Source: Paraspadella gotoi (taxonomy: Eukaryota; Animalia; Chaetognatha). From it: 64,000 nt of DNA. Shown here one piece after another: positions 1 to 58,412 of the stretch. The position numbers and the translations under genes were made by a program. How positions within the stretch are numbered: position 1 is the stretch's first letter; the number at the start of each line of letters is the position of its first letter. Location of the stretch: assembly GCA_051294375.1 (NCBI GenBank), contig CM119267.1, positions 19,667,546 through 19,731,545 on the forward strand, in the 5' to 3' direction. The notes beneath the pieces were generated by a model, which saw only the letters and a program-made list of their open reading frames with translations, had not been told where the DNA came from and ran no database searches.

Positions 1-208
1 AATTTCTGAAGAAGCAGAATTTTTACTTTGACAGTGGATCTTACTATCAATCCTTCAGTTCCCATTAAAACAATTGCGCTATGAAGGCTTACATTGAAGC
101 TGAAACATGTCCGAAATGTGTTTCTTTATAAAACTCGTACGTAAACAATTCATTTTCTACTTCAAACTTAAAAATTATAGTGGACTAAAATCCACCAATC
201 GTTCATCA

Positions 209-280
209 GCGGCCGTTGGTGCCGGAGGCAAGTCATTCGCCTCCCAACCCAAAGGTCCGGGGTTCTAGCCCGGTGGCCGC
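209..280 (+). promoter_or_regulatory. tRNA-derived (Gly-CCC-like) domain / putative Pol III type-2 promoter inside LTR1
   Basis: 72 nt with acceptor-like stem GCGGCCG/TGGCCGC, A-box-like TGGTGCCGGAGG, TCGCCTCCCA resembling the tRNA-Gly anticodon arm, and B-box-like GGTTCTAGCCC. A diverged copy is in LTR2 (~640-711). Confidence 0.65.
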
Positions 281-282
281 CT

Positions 283-368
283 AGCAGTTAAGAGGGACGG
301 GGCGATTAACCCGCCTGTAACAGCCTGTTACAGCCTGTTACAGCCTGATCCGAAGCTCAGGGACTGCT
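283..368 (+). ncRNA. Twister ribozyme, type P5 (LTR1, family A)
   Basis: AGCAGT/ACTGCT (P5); GA-CGG pairing with CCG-AAGC (pseudoknot); U^AAC-CC-GCC; P3 TGTAAC/GTTACA; P4 CCTGA/TCAGG. Predicted cleavage 307^308. P1 is minimal and P2 needs a bulge. Confidence 0.75.
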
Positions 369-713
369 TAAAATTGAACGGTTCTGTCACTAACATATAA
401 CAATTATCACTGTCTCTTCATTGGTGAGCCCGACTTCCGAACACAACAGCAACAACAACACTTTCAGGCGACATGCCTCAACCTGGCGATGCACTTTCCA
501 CCAACAACACATCAGGCAACATGCCTCAACTTGGTGACGCACTTTCCACCAACAACAACAATTCACTGTAGAGACGCAACAGACTTCTCCCTACGGGAGG
601 GGGGATGTATGGTGGACTAAAATCCACCAACCGTTCATCAGTGGCAATTTGTGCCGGAGGCAAGTCATTCGCTCCCAACCCAAAGGTCCAGGGTTCTAGC
701 CCGGTGGCCGCCT

Positions 714-789
714 AGCAGTTAAGAGGGACGGGGCACTTAACCCGCCTGTAACACGGTGTTACAGCCTGATCCGAAGCTCAGGGACTGCT
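714..789 (+). ncRNA. Twister ribozyme, type P5 (LTR2, family A)
   Basis: Same core as 283-368 with a clean P3 TGTAAC-ACGGT-GTTACA. Predicted cleavage 738^739. Confidence 0.75.
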
Positions 790-801
790 TATATTGAACG
801 G

Positions 802-1398
802 TAGAGCGTAGTGAAAGTTAAATACGAAAATTCTAAATGTCAATCAATACCATCAATGGATATTAATTTGTAAACAAAATTTATGTTCTTCAATTTTCGC
901 AGTAGGCTATATTTATATATAGTACTATCCTTATAAAATCGAAAAAATTCAAAATAGGCTTTTCTTAATTTTGATTGCAGATTTGAATTCCTCGTCAAAA
1001 GTTGATAAAAGAAAATATAAATCATTTTTAAATATTTTTTCAATAAGTGGGTTAAAAATTAAAAAAAATTTATTGAATATATAAAATTTTAATTTTCAGC
1101 TTAAAATATAGGTTTTTTTATATTTGATCAACTTAATGAAAGAATTTTTAAAAAAGAGTTATATTTCTTTATATCAACTTTTCATGACGAATCCAAATCT
1201 GCAAAAAAATCTTTAAGAAATAATTTTAGAATTTTAACATTTAGTGGATTAGTACTAGTATAAATATAGCCTACTGCGTAAATTTTAAAATTTATTATAA
1301 AATTTTTTTATACATAAATGTTAATTAGCATAATGTTGTTCATTCCTCACTTTTAGAATTTTAATTAAAGTTAAATTGATAATTTTTACTACGCCTTA
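802..1398. mobile_element. hAT-type MITE nested in LTR2
   Basis: Imperfect TIRs TAGAGCGTAGTGAAA / TTTTACTACGCCTTA. 8-bp TSD TTGAACGG (794-801, 1399-1406), present only once in uninterrupted LTR1. Confidence 0.85.
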
Positions 1399-1679
1399 TT
1401 GAACGGTTCTGTCACTAACATATAACAATTATCACTGTCTCTTCAAAATTTAAATTTATTATAAATTTTAAAATTTATATTACTGAACAAAAAAAATGTT
1501 TATTGCACAAACTGAGACTCGACGCTAGAGGGATAACAAAATTAAATGGATTAACAAAGCACCGACCGGTAGTACCTTAGGTTGTTGCGGACGTCGAATA
1601 GTAAAAGTAAAAAAAATTATAATATGAACACTTGATAATAATCATCACGTTTTCCTTTAAATTATATTAAAAATCAAAA

Positions 1680-3413: not shown

Positions 3414-4107
3414 CTAGGTATCTTCATTTTCATCGCGTTCGCCGGAACTGCATCGCGTAACTCGGTCTTTATATTCTTTCTCAGTCAACAGTCCCTGCTT
3501 GCCCGGTTTCCGATCCGACATTCGAGGAAGAACTATGGCGAGAAATCCTTCGCCCTCGGGGTCCGAGGTCAAGAGTTCGGGGCGCGAAACGAGGCGGGCG
3601 TTGGCCTCGACCAAGGCCCCTCTGACGCCGTTCGTTAAGACATGACGAGATCCATCTTCGCAGGTCACCGTCGCCAACGTCTAGCGATAGAGGCAAAACA
3701 TTGGGGCTCGAATGTGACAAGACGTCAGCTAAATCGACGGGCCTTGCGACATTGATTCATTAATCAATCACCTGTTTGTCATCGTGGAAGAACTGGCCTC
3801 CCTTTTTGCCTTTTCCCTTGACGGCGTTTTCGAGTCGATTGACTTTTTTCGAGACTTGAAAGTCGATCTGGACGGCCTTTAATCTATCGGCAAGAATCGG
3901 GTGCGACGGCGCAAGGGTCACCACGCAGATGCCGTTCGAGTGAACAAGGACCTGGACGTGAGCCACTGGCGGGACCCTATCTTTTTCCGGCGTTACTTCA
4001 AGTTTGTAGAAGCGAGTGAAGTATCTCTCGGCAAATGAAGGATATTTCGCAGTTTTAGCAGTCGGTTTGAGGCTTGCCTCTTCTTCGCTTTCTTCTCTTC
4101 GCTTCAT
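3414..4107 (-). CDS. ABITRAM: Abitram/Simiate (FAM206A), glycine cleavage H-like protein; 2 exons, intron 3681-3771
   Basis: YPSFAERYFTRFY, HSNGICVVTLAPSHP, NRLENAVKGKGKKGGQF, GVRGALVEANARL...PEGEGFLAIVLP; canonical GT-AG intron. Confidence 0.9.
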
Positions 4108-23366: not shown

Positions 23367-26300
23367 CTAATCGAATGTTTGTTCAAAGTTAAGTACCCCT
23401 ACAGATCTCGGCGGAAAAGAAAATTCTTCGGAAGTGCTCACGTCTTGGGCGTTCGTTGTTTTGAAAAGGGTCAAGAATTTGTTAACGAGCCGAATCTCTG
23501 CAGCTTCTTCGTCGTCCTTTTGATCTTCTTCCTCTCCTCTCTTCAGCGACGTCTTCAAAACGCTGAGGTTTGTCTCGGCGTTGGCCATCGCCATCATCTT
23601 GTCGTTGATCTCGGCCCGATTGGCGTCGAGAACCGAGGCGCCGGAGATGCGTCGACCGTGCTGCCGGAAGGATGGCAGCAGAGCCGCGTCGTAGTGGGCG
23701 TCGAGGATTGCGCCGAGGGGCGACGACGCGATTGAAAGATCGTCGATGGTCAAAAGGTCGACGAGGTGAACTAACGTCATGCAGATTTGATCGATGAGAA
23801 CCTAGTGGGTAAGGTGGGCGAAAACGAGACTAAATGAGCATTAGGATGAAGAAATTAAATGAAAAGAAAGAAGAGAAAAATAAAATATACATGGTGACAA
23901 TTTTACAAGCGCCGGTAGAAATACGCTGTCATTTGCAAACCAGTGGTTATTTCATTGATTTTAAAAATTAGTTGAGGAGAAAATATTAAAATCATTTAGG
24001 TGTTCAAATTTTATATTGATCAGTTAAGATATGCCTTGACAATGAGTGGAGAAAGTTGGCTTGTAAAATCGGGTTTCATTTTCCAACTCAGTTTTTAAAT
24101 TCAATTTTTTTTCACTTTTAGCACTTTTTTAAACAAAGTATTTATTAAGATATTAAAAATATTAATATCTTTAGAAAGCCCTTAAAAATATGAAGAGAAT
24201 GATATACTTACGAAAGCTCTAACATAATAATTAAGCTGCCCGGTGTTGGTTCAATTAAGAGTGTCAAAAGTGAATTATCTAAAATTTTAAATCTTTTTTT
24301 AAAATATATGACCTGTTTAAATTATTATAACATAAAATATTATTATTTATATAAGTATCATAAAAGAGCCTGAGAAAAAAAAGATTTAAGATAGCCAATC
24401 ACAATTTGATAAAAATCTAAAATTTACCCTCCAACTATTTATTTTTAGAAAGATGACTCGTTTTTGAGTTTCCTAATTAAATTAAAGCTTGGCCGGTTAA
24501 ATTTTATATTATAGTATTTGTAAGTACGTCATTCTCTTTAGATTTGAAAGGGCTTTCAGAAGATATTAATATGAATATTATTTTATTTCNNNNNNNNNNC
24601 ACTTTTTTAAACAAATTATTTATTAAGATATTAAAAATATTAATATCTTCAGAAAGCCCTTAAAAATATGAAGAGAATATACTTACGAAAGCTCTAACAT
24701 AATAATTAAGCTGCCCGGTCTTGGTTCAATTAAGAGTGTCAAAAGTGAATTATCTAAAATTTTAAATTTTTTTAAAAAATATATGACCGGTTTAAATTAT
24801 TATAACATAAAATATTATTATTTATATAAGTATCATGAAAGAGCCTGAGAAAAAAAAGATTTAAGATAGCCAATCACAATTTGATAAAAATCTAAAATTT
24901 ACCCTCCAGCTATTTATTTTTGGAAAGATGACTCGTTTTTGAGTTTCTTAATTAAATTAAAGCTTGGCCGGTTAAATTTTATATTATAGTATTTGTAAGT
25001 ACGTCATTCTCTTTAGATTTGAAAGAGCTTTCAGAAGATATTAATATGAATATTATTTAATTTCAAATTTCTTCAGAAAACTTACTGAAAGTAAGATAAA
25101 AAAATTAAATCTAAAAAAGTGAGTTTAAAAATCAGAGACAATTTTCAAATCCATCTTCCAGCTATCATTGCTGAGGCATATCAATGTCAATTCTGATAAA
25201 ATTTGCATATATAAATAGTTTGGGTTTTTACTTTTAAATTCATATTTAACATGGGTTTGCAAATGACAGCTTTTTTTTACCGGCGCTTGTAAAATTGTCA
25301 CCATGTACAAAGCAAACAAAACCGACCACCAAAAAAATTTTACAGTATTTTTTGTATATTTCAATTTTCCAACAACACACCTCTCGATATTTGACTTCGG
25401 AAAAATCGGAGACGATCTCGGCGTTCTGCAGACCGACGAAAAGGCTTTCCCAAACGGTAGCAAACTCAGTAGCGCTCCCGTAAAACCGGCGCTCCTTGGG
25501 AACTCCGAGCGCCAAAGCGGCGTTTATTCGAACTTTGAAGTTCTTGCATTCCTTGACGGCAGTGCAAAGGGCGATGACCATGTCGCGGATCCACGAGGCT
25601 CCCAGCGCGTCCACCAATAAAGGTGCGTTGCGTAACATGTTGGCCAGCGCGTAGCAGGCGTTCCAGCGTACCTTGAGGGAGCGCCCAACAACAGTGAAAG
25701 AATTTTTAAAAAAAGATTTCTTAAGGACCATCAAAAAATAACTACTGAGGCGGTGTGAGATTACTTTCATCAATCCAGTAGCGATATTTTCTATGAGAGA
25801 GTAAACGGCCTTAGCAGAGGCATCCTTAAATGGAGTGACGGCATAAGTGGCTTCGGGAAGATACCGAAGAAGGTTGCCAACGGCCCGAACGGCATTAGCG
25901 CGAACTTTGTCGGTGTCGCCCGCAGCGGCTATGGCACTTAACAACAGCTTTAGCAAGAGACGGGCGTCCAATTCGTTAACGAAGGAAGCTCCAAGCGTCT
26001 CGCGGTTCACGAACCTGAAAGTCGGAAAATTCGTTTTGAATTACTAATTATTTTTACACGGATAATTTTGACGATTCTCACAGCGATTCGCTCAAATTTC
26101 CAAAGGCCCAGGCCGCCTTGATGCGAACCGCTTGCTGTCCCATCGCGTTGTTAGGATAAGAAGAAGAGGAGGAGTCGAGGCAGGCGACGACCGCATGTCC
26201 TACGTCGGAGATGAAGTTGACGTCCTCTCGAAGAGTAGGGTATTGAATATAAACGCCTAAATTTTTTTAATGCGGAACAAAATTTATTCTTTCTACCAAT

Positions 26301-30445: not shown

Positions 30446-32894
30446 TTATGCATCGTCGCTTTGTTTCCTTTTTCTATAAAATACAACGAAGACGTCGAAA
30501 TTAACCTGAAGGTTCGACCCTTCTCCGTTCAAACGGGCGACTTCTGTCTTTAACTCTTCCAATAGTGAGACGTTGTCGGGATCTCTTTTCAGCAAGCGGC
30601 GATACCCGGACCAGGTGTCCACGTAGTTAAAAAAGTCGTCGAGAGGCCATTCATAGTTAAGGGTCAGTGCCTTTGCCTCGCGCCATGAGTCAAGGCCGAG
30701 CGCTAAGTCCGGGAGCTCCAAACCTTCGTAGCGTGTCTCCACATGACGTCTGTCCGCGGGCCAATCGAGTCGCCTGTAAAACCGATATAGCGTTGCGTTC
30801 AACGCATTAGTCTCATCGGAGACGTCGAATTTGTGACGGGAGCCGATAACAGGGGTGGAGTAGCCGAAAATGGCCGCCAAACCACCAGGAAAAAGAATTC
30901 TCCGACATTCCTTCAAGAAACCGGCCATGTCGAACCAATGTGCCGCCTGTATAGTATAAGAACAAAAAAAAATGTCCTTGGGGAAGGTATCGCTGTATGC
31001 CTATTGCCTAACCTGTCCGGCGATGACCAAATCTACGCTGGAATCCTCGACGTTGACTTTTTCGGCCACGCCGACCTCGAACCGCAGCTCCTCCGTCTCC
31101 GAAGAGATTTTTTTTATCGCTTCTGCGATTTGATTGGCTGAGGGATCGGTTGCCAAAGCTCGGCGAAAGTAAGTCAAAAAGGGTAAGGTGCTTTGCCCAC
31201 TACCGCATCCGAGATCGACCAGTTGATTCCATTTGCCGTCATACTTAAAAGCAAATATTCTTAGGCATTTTTTAAAATCTTATAGCCATCTTATGAAAGT
31301 TACAAAATTACTTATCTTGTTATCTTTATTTTTTAGATTTAAAATAACTTATTTATAATTTCATTTATTTGTTAAAATATTTTTGTGTTAAATATTTAAA
31401 TATAATATTATTTATGTTTGGGATGGGGACGTTTTCTGGAAATAGAGGGTGCATCTACACAACACAAGGTTAGATTACTTTCTGTTCCAGTTTTCTAATA
31501 GATATCGTACATCATTCCTGTCGGAAAATCATTAATGAAAAACTCATAATATCTATAAGGCCGAACAAAAAGGGGGAATGTATGGCAACGGAAGGATAGC
31601 CTGTGATACCCGGGGCGCGGGGTATCTCACCAACTGGCGTAGGGGCTGCGGACCCTCAGTGACCGCCTCCTGTCACTGGCATGTTTATACCGGCACCGTC
31701 ACATTTAAGCCAGAACCGGGATACCCAGGGATTGAACCCGGGACGCACGGATGGAATGAGATGATTTAGCCTGCTCAGCCATTGAGACGAGGCTGAGGAC
31801 GGACAGCAGTGAGGCAGCTTTAAGTCTTGCTGCCACAGGATCCCCCCACCAGACTTCTCCACAGGGGCCTCAATCCTGAGGAGATGTCTGAGAGAAGGTT
31901 TTGATCTCATTGCCATAGTGAGAGCGAGCGGGCGAGCGAGCGAGTCTGGAGCGTTACCAGAGAAGTAGGGCATAGGCGTGATATGCATACCCTAAGCGAC
32001 GTAAGCATGGGCGCACGGTGCGCAGCGGTTGCGTGTTCGAGAGTAGGGCTCACCACTTATGGCAACGGAAGGATAGCCTGTGATACCTGGGGCGCGGGGT
32101 ATCTCACCAACTGGCGTAGGGGCTGCGGACCCTCAGTGACCGCCTCCGTCACTGGCATGTTTATACCGGCACCGTCACATTTAAGCCAGAACCGGGATAC
32201 CCAGGGATTGAACCCGGGACGCACGGATGGAATGAGATGATTTAGCCTGCTCAGCCATTGAGACGAGGCTGAGGACGGACAGCAGTGATGCAGCTTTAAG
32301 TCTTGCTGCCACAAATGTATAATTTTTGGGGGGATTAATGTTGTGTAATAATCCTTTCTTTTTTGTTATGATGTAAATTAGGGATAAAGTTTGAAAGTTT
32401 CAAACTTTATCCCTAATCTACATCACAACAAAAAAAGAAAGGGATTAAGGTTATATGGTATGATTATTTTTATCTTAAGGATAAGACTACATGGTAGAAT
32501 TGTATGCTCTGATAGGGATACATACTGGGGAAATTTTTTAGGGGCAACTTTATATTTCGAATGTAATTTTAATTTTTATATATATATATATATATATATT
32601 TCTATATCGTTTTTTAAGTCAAATATAAAGGTCATCAGTCGGGAACCTATACCCTTCATGGATTTCGGCTCTTTAATCCCAATATCCAGGTATAGGCGAG
32701 CCATCACCAAATTATGTGATAATTATTTCCTTATCTTATTCCTGAATTTTTTAAATTGTTTTAGCCCTTACATCAGAAGGTCGTTTGTGACTCAAAGTTT
32801 CCATGATGTGCCGAACCAATTCCTTGGAGTAACTTGGGCGGTAAATTGCGTACGCGGCGGCATGCGACGCTTCTTCAAAAAACGACTTCGACAT
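30446..32894 (-). CDS. Class I SAM-dependent methyltransferase (Methyltransf_11 type), 3 exons
   Basis: MSKSFFEEASHAAAYAIYRPSY; LVDLGCGSGQST; TDPSANQIAEA; SVDLVIAGQ|AAHWFD; YVDTWSGYR. Confidence 0.85.
31634..31713 (-). ncRNA. Twister ribozyme, type P5 (3' LTR, family B)
   Basis: Same core as 32111-32189; predicted cleavage 31687^31686. Confidence 0.8.
32111..32189 (-). ncRNA. Twister ribozyme, type P5 (5' LTR, family B)
   Basis: P5 CTGGC/GCCAG; P2 ATGT/ACAT; GA-CGG vs CCG-CAGC; U^AA (32163^32162); GCC; P3 AGTGAC/GTCACT; P4 AGGG/CCCT. Confidence 0.8.
32204..32257 (-). promoter_or_regulatory. Pol III A box / B box pair in the 5' LTR of family B
   Basis: A box TGGCTGAGCAGG and B box GGGTTCAATCCC at tRNA-like spacing; repeated in the 3' LTR. 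Confidence 0.7.
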
Positions 32895-45796: not shown

Positions 45797-47426
45797 TTAA
45801 ACAATCTTTTTCAAAGAAACAATGTCGTAGTCGCTGTCGCCAAACTCCCTCGGATGAGAGTCGCGATCAATACAGGAAATTTTAAAGTTAAACTCTTCTT
45901 GGACGATTCGAAAAAACTCGACTTCGCCGAGACCACGGGGTTTGTAGGAGAAGAGGACGAGAGACTCCGGATGCGAGAGACAATCGACGGTCCGCGCCAG
46001 CGCCCTCAACACATCCGGGTCCGAGGAATATATGACGTCGGATCCGAGTACGACGTCGACGGAGCCGCGAGGGATGTCCGCCCAAACTGACGCTTCGTCG
46101 TCGGTCCAGTTGAGCGGCCGACAGGACACACGGTGGAGGCGGTCGCCGATTTGAGCTCGATTACCTTCCAAGCATCGACCGGTGTGGTCGACGGCGTCTG
46201 AATGATCAGTGAGAACGACCTCGGCAGCCCCCAACAGGCCCGCCACCATGCCAACCAGCCCGCAACCCGCGCCAAGTTCCACCGCTTTTTTATTTGACCA
46301 AAAACGAGGGTTGGGGTGACTGGTTTCCAGATATTTCGCCAAAAGATAGGAACCGTCCCAAAGCTTCAAATGGGTATTACGATTTACAGATATTTCTTTC
46401 TCTACATGGTGACAATTTTACAAGCGCCGGTAGAAAAACGCTGTCATTTTCAAACCCATGAAGATTTTTTCAATATTAAATATAAATTTAAAAATAAAAA
46501 CCCAATCTATTTATATATGCAAATTTTATCAGAATCGACTTTGATATGCCTCAGCATTCAGCAATGATAGCAGGAAGATGGATTTGAAAATCGTCTCAAA
46601 TTTTTAAACTCATTTTTTTTAGATTTAATTTTTTTCTCTTACTTTCAATAAGTTTTCTGAAAAAATTTGAAATAAAATAATATTAATATTTTCTGAAAGC
46701 CCTTTCAAATCTAAAGAGAATGACGTACTTACGAATACTGTAGTATAAAATTTAACTGGCCCAGCTTTAATTTAATTAAGATACTCAAAAACGAGACATC
46801 TTTTTAAAAATCAATAGCTGGAGAATAAATTTATGATTTTTATCAAATTGTGATTGGCTATCTTAAATCCTTTTTTCTCAGGCTCTCTCATGATACTTAT
46901 ATAAATAATAATATTTTATGTTATAATAATTTAAACAGGTCATATATTTTGAAAAAAGATTTAAAATTTTAAATAATTCACTTTTAACACTCTTAATTGA
47001 ACCAAGGCTGGGCAGCTTACTTTTTACGTTAGAGCTTTCGTAAGTATATCATTCTCTTAATATTTTTAAGGGCTTTAATAAAGTGCTAAAAGTTCCAACA
47101 AAAAAATTGAATTTAAAAACAGTGAGTTGGAAAATGAAACCCGATTTGAAAAGCCAACTTTCTCCACTCATTGTCAAGGCATATCTTAACTGATCAATAT
47201 AAAATTTTAACATAAACAGTTTTAGTATTTTCTATTTAACCAATTTTTAAAATCAATGAAATAACCACTGGTTTGCAAATGATATCGTATTTCTACCGGC
47301 GCTTGTAAAATTGTCACCAAGTAAGTTTTGATAGGCTGTTAGAGAAGCTCCACAAAAAGAAAAGATTCTTTGTTCTGATTTGGTGTCCAACCGTGGATTG
47401 TTATATCGCCAAAGAACTAACGCCAT
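45797..47426 (-). CDS. METTL21-family protein-lysine methyltransferase, coding sequence interrupted by a MITE (candidate new intron 46402-47317)
   Basis: MALVLWRY...IFSFCG N-terminus resembles METTL21A; LWDGSYLLAKYL, VELGAGCGLVG, VVLTD, DVVLGSDVIY. Confidence 0.85.
46405..47321. mobile_element. TA-targeting MITE (917 bp) inserted in coding sequence
   Basis: TIRs CATGGTGACAATTTTACAAGCGCCGGTAGAAA / TTTCTACCGGCGCTTGTAAAATTGTCACCAAG; TA at 46403-46404 and 47322-47323. Confidence 0.92.
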
Positions 47427-50881: not shown

Positions 50882-53800
50882 TGTAGAGATATGTCCCCCA
50901 TTTATTTGTTTGCCTTTTATTATTACCGTTTCTGCCGATAGATGTCTTTTTCCTTTTCTTTAAGAGATTACACTCCTCTTTCCTTTTCTTACCAGATATT
51001 CTAGGCCATGTAGATTTTTAAGACTTTTCCGCCCGTCACCAAACTGCCTTTTACGAGGTTCTAGGACACCCTCATGTCACCATTAGTCACCTTTGATACC
51101 GTTCACAGACAGTGATGCCACGGCCATAGAGCTTGTGGCGAGACCACACTCCAAGAGACTCGTGGGCTTACTCGTGGTCAGACTTTAGGCCCCGTCATAG
51201 ACTGGTGGACGGACTCGTGGCCCACTACATTCGGCCACACTCGGGTGACAATAGCCTCGCCGATTACTCCTTCATCACGGCGAGCCGACGGTTTCGGCGC
51301 AAGCACAACGGCGCTGGACGCGGCCACGCCCACTTCCGGAGGCGTCAGCGGGGGACCTGGGGGACAGCGGTCCTCCGTAACAGCACGACGGCGGTGAAGC
51401 GGAGGCGGCTACACGAGCCACACAGGCAATCGTGTTCGTACAGTAAAAGGCAGAATTTAGTCTCCTCTGGCCTAAGCATCTATTTTGTGTAAAAGATGTA
51501 GAGCTAAAGACGATATTAGTAAAAGATGTTGGGATAAAGATTTTGTATTGTATTACGAAATACTGTCATAAAAAATTGATTTTTTCTCTCTCTTTACATG
51601 TCTCGCACGATGGCATCGGTCTCTCAGAAAAGCGGCGCCCCTCAGAACGGAGCAGATGGAGTCAGTCCGGACGAATTTGCCGAACAGCTTGAGTGTCTTC
51701 CGCATACCTTCGAAGGCCTCTTTTAACCGGGCCGTCGAGACAGGAACGTCAGCGGACCGCACGTCTGCCAACAGCATGAGGGAGGCGCTGTTCAACAAGA
51801 GACAGGAGGCGATGCGTCTGGCGGGAGGCTGGAGAGTGAAAACAACTGATCCTCTGGACGAGGAATTGAAAGAGTAAGATAATTTTTATTGGCAAATCCC
51901 GCTTTCCCGCCACTTTTGGTGGCTACGGGAGACGATACGATTATTGCTAATCCCGCTTCCGATTCCGGCTCTCGAACCGGATCCCCGTTGCTCTTTCCCC
52001 CGATGCCCGTCGGTCGCGGGAAGAGGACGAGTACAGGTAGTGGAAGAACGATGGTTGTGGGAGGAACGGCGACGACGACATCGCGGAAGATCAAAACCCG
52101 ATTGCCCGTCGCTTGAGATCCTCTGTATCGGCGCGCTCCGCTGTTCCAGACGGCCTTCATGACTCCGCCCACCTCTGATTTACCTGTACGGTCGCCGCGG
52201 CAGGGCACTTATACGAGCGCTTTCGCGCCGGTCCTGCCCACGAACACCGACTTCCGGGGCGACGACCATGCCGATGGTGAAACGATAGCCACAGTGGCGA
52301 CGGCGACCGCGACTTCTACCGTGGTCACCTCCACAATTGTACACACTACCTCTGCAGCAACGACAGCTCTACCTCCCGTCAGCTTTGCTGATGAGCAGCA
52401 ACGAGCGTTTGAAGAGGCAGTGCAGAGTAGACACATTTTTTCCGCAACAAATTGTCATAGAAACTTCGGAAAACCACCATTCGATTCGAAATAAAATTCT
52501 CTCTTCGAATGATGTGCTATATGATTAACTTATTGAAAGATTTCGCTTGACCCACGCGCGCGTCAAAGTTCCACATGCGTCAGATTCATTGATTTACGTA
52601 TATTTTGAAACGTTGAAGGGATCCTTATGTGATGTTTTTAATCATTATAGATTGAAATGAATGTAAAAATCCGATGTAGTTGTAATTTATTAAAAATTAA
52701 TAAAAAAGTATTAAGCAAAATATACCGGAAGTGTAATTTTAATATTTTTAAACCAATTTATCTTCTCTCATGAAAAGTGACGGCAAGAGGCAAACAATTC
52801 TTGCGTTGTTATTGTTAACTGAATCTTTAAACTTGAAGTTCATAAGACACTTTGTTTGGCTTAGGGTGAGATCGACGATGTTCTTCAACGCCCTGAAGCA
52901 TTGCTTCATGTTGCATTTTATTACGGGTATTGAACCATTGTAATCACTTGCAAATTTAACCACCCTCTCTGCAGCATCATTGAGTGGCGAAAAATCCATT
53001 TACAAGCTTGCAGAATGAGTGGTAGTTGACGTTATCATTACATTCTTCACAGGTTTCGACAAAAAAAGATGGCTCAAAGTGACAAAGCTGTGTAATAAAT
53101 TATAATAGTCATTGAAATTAGATATAATTAATATAAAAATTATTGATAAAATATTGCAAATTGAACCTGAAAAAAATAAACCATGAATCAGCCGAAACGT
53201 AATCTTCTAATTTGGCTGTTTTCATATACGCATGGTATTTCCGGCTTTCCCATTTCTACTTGGACCTTTTCAGAGCTCAAGAGGGCTTCAGCCATCGACA
53301 TTCTAGTTGAGTTTTGAGACTTTTTTTGAAGCCAAAGCGAGAATAACCGAGTGGCCAGAAAGATATTCGGTGTATGTAAATCAATCTTTCTTAGTCCAGC
53401 ATGGGCCCCATCGCGATCCCTTGATCGCCACGCCATTAGATCTTCATAAAGGGAGAGAGTAAGGAATGGAGCATCTCGCCATGAATGGACAGCAGAACCA
53501 GTAATAAAATTGAAATGTACAAGATGTAATAAGACATCACGAAGACATCCATTTTCTGCTGGTGACTCAAAACGAAAGAATCACCAACGATCAGCATTTT
53601 GAGAATGTAGAGGCAGCTACCATCCAACGAGCGTGATGTATCGTGCTTAGCCTTTTTGTCATGTGAAGTTGAGCTTCTTTGCCAAGAAAAAGAGACGAGA
53701 TCAACTAGATTCATATTAATATTATTATATGAGTGTGCTTTTGGCAATATAATGATAATTGATTTCTAAAATCTAAATAAATCTGCAAACTACAAAGCAT

Positions 53801-56240
53801 TTTGTGCATAATTATTTATCTAATTTTACTCTACTCATATTCTACTAAAAATATGACATTGTAATCTTTTTCCTTAGTTCTTCCTTAGTTCTTCCGAATT
53901 GTTTTCAGGTGAAGCAAAGGGATTCGCGCGTCACCCAGTTTCCAAAGGTTAATTCTAGAGCTACGACATAAGCAGTCTCATTTTTATCTCGTTGGTTTTT
54001 GGGATGAGTGTAAAAAATGTCAAAGAACTGTTCCAATACTGCTGCCCCTTTTGGTGGTTCTGCCGGCGGTGGTCGAAAGTTCGCTAAGCGCTTGCAAATA
54101 CCAAATTCGGCAAACAGAGGAAACTCGCCCCTGTAGCAGAACGAGGTGTTCATGATTAATGGACTGTCTGTAAAAAAATATTATTCTGTAAATAAAATTA
54201 AACAAAGAATAACTATCTATCAGTCACAGAAATTTAATAATTAATACTAAATTATATCGAAAAATAATAAATATTTGTAACTGAGAAAGAGTTTCCAATT
54301 TGGATGTTGTTACCTAGTTGCTTTCAACTCGCCTGGGTCAAGCGAAATATTTTAGAAATTAATTAAATTATATACCAAACGAAAGAGAATTTTATTTCGA
54401 ATCAAATGGTGGTTTTCCGAAGTTTCTTATGACCATTTGTTGCGGAAAAAAAATGTGTCTAGTGCAGAGGGCAGTTAACGATAGAAACTATAAAGCTGCA
54501 CGAACCGAAGAAGATTTTGAGAGAGAGAGATGGCGATGCTGCAGGAAGAAAATGATCGATTAAGACAAGCTGCCGAGAGGCAGTCGGCTCGACGACGTCT
54601 TCGAGCTGCAAGGGAATCTGCAGCCGATCGATTAGCGAAGAGAACACGCGCTCAACGAGTTCCAAATGCTTCGCAAGCGCCGGCGGTCATCTCGGGACCG
54701 GGCGCCGATCTTCCCGCGTTGCGGCGCCCATCCCGATTTCCGCTGAGGTTGGCGCGGACGTCGCGCCTCGGCCGAGAGGTCTGGTCGAGTTAGCAACGGG
54801 TCTGAACGCCTTGCCTGCGAGAAGAGCCGGACCTTCAGCCGAAAACAGCCCGTCGGCGGCGAATCTGACGACTTTGACCGAGAGATTAGTCCGCAATAGA
54901 GATTGTCGCCCAACAACAGGTTGCCGCACACGAGATCGAACGAGAACAGTGGAGACTCGAAAGGGAAAATCTTCAGAGAAATTTCGAGGCCACGGTAATG
55001 AGAATGGTTACATGATTCTAGGCCGCCCAGGCGGCCCAGGCGAGAATGCAGCCCCACGGATAGAAACCCGCCTTCGCCACCTCGGGCACCGCTTCCTCGG
55101 ACCCTCTCATCAGCCCCACGCTTCGACTCTCCACGATTCTTTACCTCAAAGAAACAATCTCAGAGAGATCCAGTGATCGACGCACAACAGGCGCAAATTG
55201 CTCAACTATTCAGAAAACTACGACAAGTACAAGAGAATTTGCGAATCTTTCAGCACACGAGAAATGGTGGGGCGGCTTCCGGGAGGCGTCTCGCTCCTGA
55301 GGCTCTCCCCGCTAGAGACGATCGACTACAACAGTATTTACACTCTCAATCGATAGAGTCGACGATCCGCAATGCTCAAAGATTTACGCCCGGAGAAATG
55401 TTTAGAAACGAAGGTGCGTCAAATAAAGGTTGTCTCGAGATTCACATGAGACAGTGGGAGGCGGCGATGACTCAGCTGGCGTCACACCACAGATGCGTCA
55501 TCAGGAACTACGCCATTGGTTCACGGGCCTCGCCCGTCTCAAACTACAGAAGTACTTCCATCGTACAGACTATTCGGCGGCAGTGGACGAAGCCATCGCG
55601 ATGCTTCACAACGGAATTTGGACGACCCGATGCCTCGCCTCACGAAATGTTTAAAAAGACTGGCTTATCCGGCGGCAAGGCAACGGACGCAACAGAGATC
55701 GACGAGATTACGCGCCTCGAAAACATCGCCGGCATCGCGGAGGCTAAAGGAAGATTACGTGATTTGAATCGCGACACGGTAATTTCGGAGATCCTCGACG
55801 CGAAATTTCCTCAGTGGAAAGACAAATTCGCCGAAGAAAACTCTCAATCAATCTTTAGAAACGGCCGAAAACTCACGCTTCACGAACTGATCGAATTCCT
55901 CAAAATTCACCTAGTCGCGGTGAAGTCGGTATACCATAAAAAGAAAAAGACGACGACGACGACCTTGTAGCGGCGGTTGCGGCGAACGCCGGCCCACCCC
56001 CCCCGTCGACGAACGGTGGGGGCGTAGTGGAGCAACAGAAAGAAACAAAGGCTACAGATTCATTCGATTCGTCCGACGCAGCTGACCCCGCTTTACCAGA
56101 GCCGCAAAAGAAAAAGAAAAAGAGACAGCGAAAAGCGAGCGTAACAGAAGCGGCGCCCCCGGCGCCTCCCCCGGAAGCTGGATGTGCCTACGTCACAGCA
56201 CAACGGCCGATTTATCTGGCCGTTTCAGAGGTCACCCTTT
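50882..56240 (+). mobile_element. Degenerate LTR retrotransposon relic: candidate LTR 50882-51598 plus frameshifted gag-like region
   Basis: TGTAGAGA...TCTTTACA inverted termini; GC-rich broken ORFs; ILDAKFPQWK...LTLHELIEFLK is reminiscent of BEL/Pao-type Gag. No pol and no matching second LTR seen. Confidence 0.4.
52428..54461 (-). mobile_element. hAT-superfamily DNA transposon deletion derivative nested in the gag-like region
   Basis: ~75-bp TIRs TAGACACATTTTTTCCGCAACAAAT...; 8-bp TSD GTGCAGAG (52420-52427 / 54462-54469); transposase C-terminal-like remnant NDAAERVVKFASDYN (52748-52999). Confidence 0.85.
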
Positions 56241-58412
56241 TCCTTAGGTTCGGTTGTAGGGACTATCCCGTTAACAGTTCTATCATAACCTGTAACAGAG
56301 GACTAGTATACCTATGAATTTATAAACAAAACCAGCGCTTGCTATCCTGTCTCCGTCACAGACTACCACGTGAATAGTCAGCGAGGATTATCATATATTA
56401 ATGGGGAATGAACCGTTCCTGTCTATTATGACATAGTCCCGTCATTAGAACATTTCACCAACATAGTCCAATTAGTTAATAAATGTACATTCGTATTCTT
56501 CACACCGTATCTGCGTGTCTCATCCTATACTCATATCGTTACTCCACGACAATCGCTACATGAGCCTCCATCTTTTTGTCTCATGTTTTTATGATTCGCC
56601 TTCTAGCTAGAGCTCTTACTCACGGTCGTGAGCTGGCTGTAGTTGATGTCATTCTACAGGAATCTCAGGAGCACACTTCGGGACGAGAATATGAGAGACT
56701 ATACCGAGACGCCCTGGGCAACTCCAGGGAAGGAAAAAAGAGGCAGGATTCGCAATATCTCCCTCAGACTTTATGCTCTCTTAATAATGTCTTGACCTCG
56801 CCTCTAAATCCCATCTAGCGATAAGATGGCCGAGAAGCGAGGTGTACATCCACTATCGCTCGCAGGGGAAATCAATCATACCACGCTGCATCGGCGCGGC
56901 CGCCTGGATCGCGCAGACAGAAACGTTCCGGTATAATCAGGTGTGTCACAATCTTCAGTCACAACCGGTCTTTTATGTTCAATCCCTACTCCTGCTCTCT
57001 CTCTCTCTCTCTCCTCGTCCTCATGCCTCTATCTCACTTCTCTCTCTCTTCCCTTCTCTCTCTCTTGCCTTCTCTTCCTCCAATTCTCCCTCTGCACCCG
57101 ACTCTCTCCTCCTCCTTATTGCTATCTTTTTCCTCTCTTCGCAGCCCTTCCTCTCTTGTACATGCGTACCCTCTTCGGGATCGCGAGTCCAATCGCCACT
57201 GGTTTACTACGTATCTTCGAGTTGTCTGCTAAGGAGACGGAGCCTCTGCTACGCATCTAGTACTGAAACAGACCTACTATAACACTGCCTGGCTGCTCTT
57301 GCCTTCCCCCTCCCACCTGGCACGCCACGCCGTTGCCCGACTGTCTCAGCTAGCTCCACCGACCCTTCTAATCACATCTCCTGTCTAGGTTGTTGCGCGG
57401 GGAACCTGGTCAACATAGTTGACTAGCGATGGCGTCCGCTCTCCAGGAGAGGCGACCTTTCGTCCGTCGTGCCGGTCGTCGTCGAGCTGAACGGGCGCAA
57501 ACGACATCAACTTAACGCAATGATCGATACGCGGCTGTAATCGCTTGGCGTATTGAAAGAGAACATTGCTAATGATCTTAGTATAATATTTGTGCCTGAT
57601 GTAAAAATGCGATTAGAGACATTAGATAGTATGTTGTTGTTAAATAAAAAAGTCGCAGACTTTAACATTGAACACATTGATGAACTTTTTCTCTTTCTAT
57701 CAGAAAGCGATTGTGGATGTTTACTGACATCGGAAGGACGACCTCCCCCCAAGCGATGCAGATGTGGTCGACAAGGCCTCATTCGAGGGGGTAACGTTCC
57801 CCAATCTCCCTAATCCTGATAATAATATATATTTTATTATAAATAATTTTATTTTATTCATTTAAAATTATACAAAATTATTTTTTAATTATTTTAACAT
57901 TCAAATAAATTTTTTAAAAAAATTATTCTTAATAATTAATATATAATAAAATTATTTTAACTGAACGGGATTTTTCTGGAAAATAAGGCTCAGGATCTCA
58001 ACTGGTGCGCCGGTTCTAAAGCTTAGTACTACGCATAGTACTAATCTTTGTTGGATCAAAACGAGCTCGATATTAAGCGAAAGTTGATCGATTTTGAAGA
58101 GCGATTTTTTTGCGATTGCTTTTTGGCGATTATTTTTTGAACGGATTGTCGGATTATGGATGAAATTATGCATGTAGATAATGTTTGCAATTGTCTATCG
58201 AACGCTACAAATTTGATATAAAAGCAATGGAGTTGTTTTAGAAACGATGCTCATCCCCAATTAAACTAATCCATTATTGGTATTAATTAGTGTGTTGTAT
58301 TATTGTTGTATATATTTCACTTAACTATTAACTTATCTATCATTCAAAATCTCAGCTTATTTCTAAGTTTTTCTAAATTTATCTTTGTTGTACATTGTAA
58401 AATGTAATTATT

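Follow-up and report, generated by a model that had tools for sequence, protein, structure and literature searches.

A candidate LTR retrozyme with a predicted P5-open twister ribozyme on a Helenus-type element of the chaetognath Paraspadella gotoi

Our analysis of a 64-kb window of the Paraspadella gotoi genome (the whole stretch of 64,000 nucleotides under study) revealed two families of short LTR elements, A and B, with a predicted twister ribozyme in each LTR. The explanation that we favor, and judge slightly better than even, is an LTR retrozyme on a Helenus-type element in which a twister replaces the hammerhead, a Pol III transcript is cut twice and a circle is the template. RNA polymerase III likely starts near position 209, in the tRNA-like segment of the 5' LTR of family A; the twisters in both LTRs would cut the transcript, releasing a monomer of about 420–431 nt with 5'-OH and cyclic phosphate ends; a host RtcB-type ligase would close it; and the circle would be copied by a helper reverse transcriptase, probably of Gypsy, primed by tRNA-Trp. 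The ribozyme motif sits where ordinary Helenus LTRs have a T-run terminator. What was read in the sequence is the pair of LTRs, the primer site, the purine tract, the twister core with its pseudoknots and a second family with covarying stems; promoter use, cleavage, ligation and the helper are what we infer from them.

The twister motifs were located with a descriptor written after they had been seen, following the Rfam twister-P1 consensus and ordered as a form open at P5 (P5, 3' strand of P2, GA, T1, short linker, UAA, 5' strand of P2, GC, P3, P4 with loop 4, P5). It matched four times on the two strands of the window, with the U of UAA at 307 and 738 (family A) and, on the minus strand, at 32163 and 31687 (family B). 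All four matches lie in the LTRs of the two elements, and 40 dinucleotide shuffles of the window gave none. The first motif of family A (284–367, plus strand) is open at P5, with G296 as the general base and a predicted cut at U307^A308; its P2 has three pairs with a bulged A293, and the pseudoknots T1 (three pairs and an A.A) and T2 (two pairs) are intact. The second (715–788, plus strand) has its predicted cut at U738^A739. On the minus strand, the family B twister of the 5' LTR (32111–32189) has a perfect 4-bp P2 and a predicted cut after U32163, and that of the 3' LTR (31634–31713) a predicted cut after U31687. The U^A cut site, the general base G and the general acid A are present in all four copies, and so are both pseudoknots, the UAA and loop 4 of P4.

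Comparison of the two families indicates that the stems have been maintained. Among 19 comparable pairs in P2, P3, P4 and P5, 11 were changed on both sides, eight were unchanged and none was broken, as counted by hand between two independent families only and in registers chosen by the analyst; the MAFFT alignment of the families, being out of register in P4, was left out of the pair counts. The double-sided changes are strong comparative evidence for a twister fold, resting on two families. Thus, the twister assignment and the cut sites proposed in the initial annotation are backed both by structure and by compensatory changes between the families. Where the Rfam consensus has CCC/GGG at T1, these elements have CCG/CGG. 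In family B, P2 has 4 bp and P1 two pairs; in family A, P2 has three pairs plus the bulge, and P1 one wobble pair. The P2 of family A lacks one nucleotide on its 5' strand; since no insertion there is listed among the contigs of run X1 (contigs of a sequencing run of unspecified type, which give no RNA ends, strand or circles and whose depth is not copy number), the lack is apparently family-wide. Both the twister and the promoter are cleaner in family B than in family A.

Searches with Rfam models gave nothing at gathering score. No twister model matched family A at E ≤ 10, and family B matched twister-P1 weakly (16.6 bits, E 0.23 on 106 bases; gathering score 67.2). There was no Rfam hammerhead match; the motif is a twister. 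A type-P1 reading of family B, as in the Rfam alignment, was rejected: it leaves P2 with two non-standard pairs and T1 with no partner, and pairing is complete in the P5-open reading. Two other readings, as an HDV-like or a pistol ribozyme, were judged by consensus features and dropped once the twister elements fitted. A search for relatives in contig collections, which hold little animal DNA, gave 0 and 3 matches among metagenome contigs, 2 among genome contigs, and 114 and at least 120 among viral contigs (about 2600 estimated). None of the 239 listed loci passed the full descriptor, and they are therefore chance matches.

The energy of the fold bears on whether the ribozyme is active. Without the pseudoknot terms, which are worth about 9 kcal/mol at most, the core-compatible fold lies above the minimum-energy fold by 7.8 kcal/mol in family A and 3.4 kcal/mol in family B; in family A, the competitor is a hairpin formed locally across the cut site and predicted to form first. 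The 7.8 kcal/mol competing fold, the one-nucleotide loss in P2 across the family, the lack of an Rfam match in family A and its degenerate boxes A and B are what would be expected if its twister were a decayed passenger and the family moved as an ordinary Helenus-type TRIM via uncut linear RNA. We consider this quite unlikely: the catalytic and pseudoknot letters and perfect P3, P4 and P5 stems have been kept despite the double-sided divergence from family B, and P2 bulges are tolerated in tested twisters (PMC11662667). Flaws in P1, P2 and P4 left cleavage undiminished among about 1,950 tested natural type-P1 twisters, which also tolerated an A-to-C change at the A.A pair, the state of family B (PMC11662667). 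Those CHiTA cleavage data cover type-P1 forms, not the P5-open permutation, which was itself already known (PMC10085705, PMC6765202).

The family A element is a non-coding LTR element of the TRIM type at 174–1445 (plus strand), ordered LTR, tRNA-primer site, purine tract, LTR. The 5' LTR (174–420, plus strand; 247 bp) matches 606–802 at 184 of 197 aligned positions and has an additional 10-nt duplication. It begins with AT, and the terminal TG is found in the 3' LTR and in other copies; its edges are marked by unrelated flanks before 176 in 17 contigs of run X1 and after 420 in 33. The non-coding internal region (421–605, plus strand; 185 bp) contains a 48-bp tandem pair at 464–557 (repeat family D19). 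At its start lies a primer-binding site of the tRNA-Trp type (422–434, plus strand), common to families A and B and sharing 12 of 13 letters with the tRNA-Trp site of Helenus-2_SyJa and Gypsy-32_NVi (PMC10886601 Fig. S2A); at its end, the polypurine tract (595–605, plus strand) abuts the 3' LTR. The two families also share letters past the 13-nt primer site (422–444 in A; 32055–32028, minus strand, in B), with a second block about 4 nt further, and this additional block suggests a possible two-part pairing with the primer tRNA. The first part of the 3' LTR (606–802, plus strand) starts with TG and contains a second tRNA-like segment; the remainder (1398–1445, plus strand) ends with CA and is identical to 373–420 at 48 of 48 positions. 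Between them lies a 595-bp, AT-rich, palindromic MITE-like insertion (803–1397, no strand assigned), flanked by a 10-bp target duplication (793–802 and 1398–1407); run X1 contains many contigs related to it. No ORF of at least 110 aa occurs before position 3760, and the element, with its two LTRs, is under about 1.3 kb.

This copy of family A is aged, as its LTRs are 93% alike, the terminal TG has been lost and the 3' LTR is disrupted. A putative target duplication, the 4-bp match AAAT, requires that the first two bases of the LTR were lost, and the flanks are AT-rich. The family is dispersed and multi-copy, because 775 pieces of run X1 match 165–445 with unrelated flanks. A few low-depth run X1 contigs join position 295 or 296 to about 373 (window 295–373), so that some copies are without most of the ribozyme core. 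The family B element (31581–32313, minus strand) has the same layout, with LTRs identical at 254 of 256 positions, a 4-bp CATT target duplication and LTRs that align colinearly with those of family A. It is younger than the family A element, young and intact.

Upstream of the first ribozyme, a tRNA-like segment (209–281, plus strand) is a predicted Pol III internal promoter, with a box A-like motif at 217–228 and a box B-like motif at 261–271. Each has one mismatch to the consensus. With the threshold relaxed to 85%, ARAGORN called a tRNA-Gly(CCC) at 209–281, its only call in family A; there was no ARAGORN call for this segment at default settings and none by Rfam at E ≤ 10. The tRNA-like head of family A is thus degenerate. 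The boxes are 45 nt apart in family A and, in clean form, 44 nt apart in family B, and the ribozyme starts 23 nt (A) or 25 nt (B) after the start of box B. One alternative is that the monomer and circle come from Pol II or read-through transcripts and that the tRNA-like segment is not a working promoter in family A, which would accord with boxes that each carry a mismatch and fall below default tRNA thresholds. Two ribozymes would also free the monomer from dependence on start and stop sites, and, for a plant retrozyme, a promoter has been mapped in the LTR itself (PMC12029980). This origin of the transcript seems very unlikely to us, given the clean boxes A and B of family B at nearly the spacing seen in family A and the wide conservation of both boxes in Helenus (PMC10886601), for which Pol III transcription is itself unvalidated (PMC10886601).

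The absence of a T4 terminator between 209 and the second ribozyme had been offered in the initial annotation in favor of a Pol III transcript. The observation holds, since the first T4 after 209 on the plus strand is at 894 and is supplied by the MITE-like insertion; as an argument it is weak and within chance, because T4 was also missing from 15% of the dinucleotide shuffles of 209–788 and from 49% of the mononucleotide ones (2000 each). No T4 occurs on the sense strand of the whole family B element. In our analysis, the position of the ribozyme at the T-run site of Helenus is more telling than the absence of T4.

That position emerges from the Helenus sequences described in PMC10886601. By eye, 39 of the 41 hymenopteran LTR records in its supplement have T4 or a longer run just after the tRNA part. 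The two without it, Helenus-2_SyJa and Helenus-2_SyUm, have a complete type III hammerhead there instead (by eye) and are the tRNA-Trp-primed ones, SyUm starting with the same site. In the Synergus gall-wasp hammerhead, loops 1 and 2 are complementary over about 12 nt (by eye, DataS1.fa), and the Synergus hammerhead families have T4 runs in the internal region. The available portion of the PMC10886601 text names no ribozyme in Helenus. Several mollusc Helenus LTRs have neither a T-run nor a visible ribozyme. Of five family A motifs sought in the Helenus sequence file, four were not found and the fifth matched only Ajax LTRs.

These data also bear on a different role for the ribozyme, in which cleavage is slow or conditional and stands in for the Pol III terminator. 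The template would then be cut only in the 3' LTR, giving an RNA from 209 to 738 (530 nt) with a 99-nt terminal repeat that is reverse-transcribed by ordinary strand transfer, and circles would be by-products or absent. The T-run site occupied by the ribozyme is what such a role would require, as the 39 of 41 wasp elements must pass the first T-run and stop at the second, and the competing hairpin could make the first cut inefficient. However, the core is the same in both LTRs and nothing favors the second cut, and the Synergus hammerhead loops suggest efficient cleavage, under which a linear template would not survive. We regard this role as rather unlikely.

Under the favored reading, two cuts would release a unit carrying the retrotransposon signals. 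The predicted cut sites at 307^308 and 738^739 were recovered by the descriptor (U307 and U738) and are 431 nt apart, as proposed initially (738 − 308 + 1 = 431). The predicted monomer (308–738, plus strand) indeed contains the primer site (422–434), the purine tract (595–605) and one permuted LTR (308–420 plus 606–738). The size of 431 nt applies to this copy; for the family, a unit of about 420 nt is expected, without the 10-nt duplication, which lies in P3 of the 5' LTR and is included in the 431 nt. Because run X1 pieces are gapped at the duplication (six of the eight listed have 9–12 gap letters across this region), most family A copies would give about 420 nt. The family B predicted monomer is 476 nt. 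The 5'-OH terminus, the 2',3'-cyclic phosphate terminus and RtcB ligation invoked in the initial annotation are established for other ribozyme monomers (PMC7229834) and predicted for this one. RtcB circularized animal retrozyme monomers in vitro at over 80%, compared with 3% for self-ligation (PMC7229834). The predicted monomer fold brings its two ends together in a mutual pairing, which in this model would favor ligation and prevent re-cutting. The predicted circles of the two families are only modestly, not unusually, structured: their pairing is 55% and 63%, with z values of −1.25 and −1.89 relative to 40 shuffles. The doubly cut RNA is without a terminal repeat, so two LTRs could be rebuilt by reverse transcription only from a circle.

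The linker between T1 and the UAA is 6 nt in family A and 8 nt in family B. It is self-complementary in family B and in nearly all of the run X1 depth for family A (C at position 305 in 63902 of 63952), with duplex energies of −10.9 and −8.3 kcal/mol; both linkers of the present family A copy have lost self-complementarity (−2.3 versus −8.3 kcal/mol). Metazoan hammerheads whose helix III is short and palindromic cleave as dimers, and this is believed to leave monomeric circles uncut (PMC4209133). By analogy, and speculatively, self-complementary P1 linkers might allow the two ribozymes of one transcript to cut as a dimer and leave the circle whole. This idea is treated here as a hypothesis, since P1 is dispensable in the twister. 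Taken together with the Helenus comparison, it leads to a more tentative proposal, which we hold to be possible rather than probable: a tRNA-Trp-primed animal branch of Helenus would have exchanged its Pol III terminator for a ribozyme and become LTR retrozymes independently of plants, with one ribozyme class able to stand in for another (a twister in the present elements, a type III hammerhead in those of Synergus), and the P1-less twister would cut as a domain-swapped dimer via palindromic linkers, sparing the circle.

The remainder of the window contains compact genes for PEX1, an acyl-CoA synthetase, a DUF4042/HEAT protein, NOL9, a lysine methyltransferase, a Tudor protein and ORC2. An AT-rich element that has internal palindromes and is bounded by terminal inverted repeats occurs twice, in opposite orientations, at 23882–25307 and 46403–47329. 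A 1.9-kb element (52459–54427), whose terminal inverted repeats are 44 bp long, interrupts a decayed gag-like sequence at 52400–56300 with ESM Atlas look-alikes in DUF1759 and Retrotrans_gag (score 0.92, a lead only). In the segment 59977–60887, which lies in a very AT-rich region, each of the six frames runs for about 250 codons without a stop; the segment is probably a simple tandem repeat.

If the favored explanation is correct, the twister, which has been assigned few roles so far, gains one in making circular retrotransposon templates, and the ribozyme class is interchangeable in the work of a retrozyme. The element would also provide a small natural system for testing LTR-type reverse transcription on a circle. 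Because Rfam misses the P5-open twister form, counts of elements of this kind may be too low.

This study also provides a comparison with known ribozyme-bearing and tRNA-like elements. On the testable features, the family A element appears to fit Helenus. Like Helenus/TRIMp3, it is a TRIM under 1 kb with a box A/B tRNA-like segment in the LTR, a primer-binding site and a polypurine tract (PMC10886601); the tRNA segment with boxes is weak in family A and clear in family B, and the 4-bp target duplication of animal Helenus and Gypsy is seen in family B (PMC10886601). Unlike Helenus, it has no T-run after the tRNA part and has a predicted ribozyme in its place (PMC10886601).

With plant LTR retrozymes (PMC4918200), it shares a non-coding body, LTRs, a primer-binding site, a polypurine tract, a 4-bp target duplication (in family B) and one predicted ribozyme per LTR, as well as a predicted released unit without the R region, for which a circle was proposed as template. 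In those elements, where circles were detected, the same geometry led to the circle-template model (PMC4918200); here, circles are predicted from sequence. In contrast to the type III hammerhead, the tRNA-Met primer site, the unit of 600–1000 nt and the pairing of about 70% described for plant LTR retrozymes (PMC4918200), we found a P5-open twister, a tRNA-Trp-type site, a unit of 420–480 nt and pairing of 55% and 63%; a tRNA-like promoter segment lies in the LTR here and not in the plant elements, as far as PMC4918200 was available. In its predicted mode of action the element resembles an LTR retrozyme, and it departs from that class in two defining features, the hammerhead and high self-pairing.

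The ribozyme itself resembles type-P5 twisters and the T-variants of Schistosoma in its UAA cut site, GA plus T1, and GC T2 (PMC6765202, PMC8501958, PMC11662667), and likewise in a U-NNN-A-A-G-C loop 4, and its P3 resembles the Rfam twister-P1 consensus. P1 is reduced, as in active Schistosoma T-variants (PMC8501958). It differs from these in being open at P5 with P1 shrunk to a 6–8-nt self-complementary linker, and in lying in LTRs as two copies, whereas known variants lie at the 5' end of a LINE (PMC8501958). Animal non-LTR retrozymes also produce small ribozyme-released RNAs, which are circularized by RtcB in vitro and some of which are cut as dimers (PMC7229834; bioRxiv 10.64898/2026.07.22.740005); unlike the present elements, they are described as tandem repeats with type I hammerheads, without LTR, primer-binding site or polypurine tract, and are tied to Penelope-like elements.

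In a preprint of July 2026, retrozymes still fall into two groups, the LTR forms, which carry type III hammerheads and come mainly from plants, and the non-LTR forms of animals, and the twister is absent from its available portion (bioRxiv 10.64898/2026.07.22.740005). Twisters in mobile elements have been reported at the 5' end of LINEs (PMC8501958, PMC7761336), and also in viroid-like circles (bioRxiv 2022.07.19.500677). The full-text literature searched, a scope that excludes most subscription papers and the Repbase annotations, contained no twister in an LTR and no ribozyme in a TRIM with a tRNA-like LTR. Within that literature, the LTR retrozyme design and the P5 permutation are known, and a twister in an LTR retrozyme with a tRNA-like promoter would be new.
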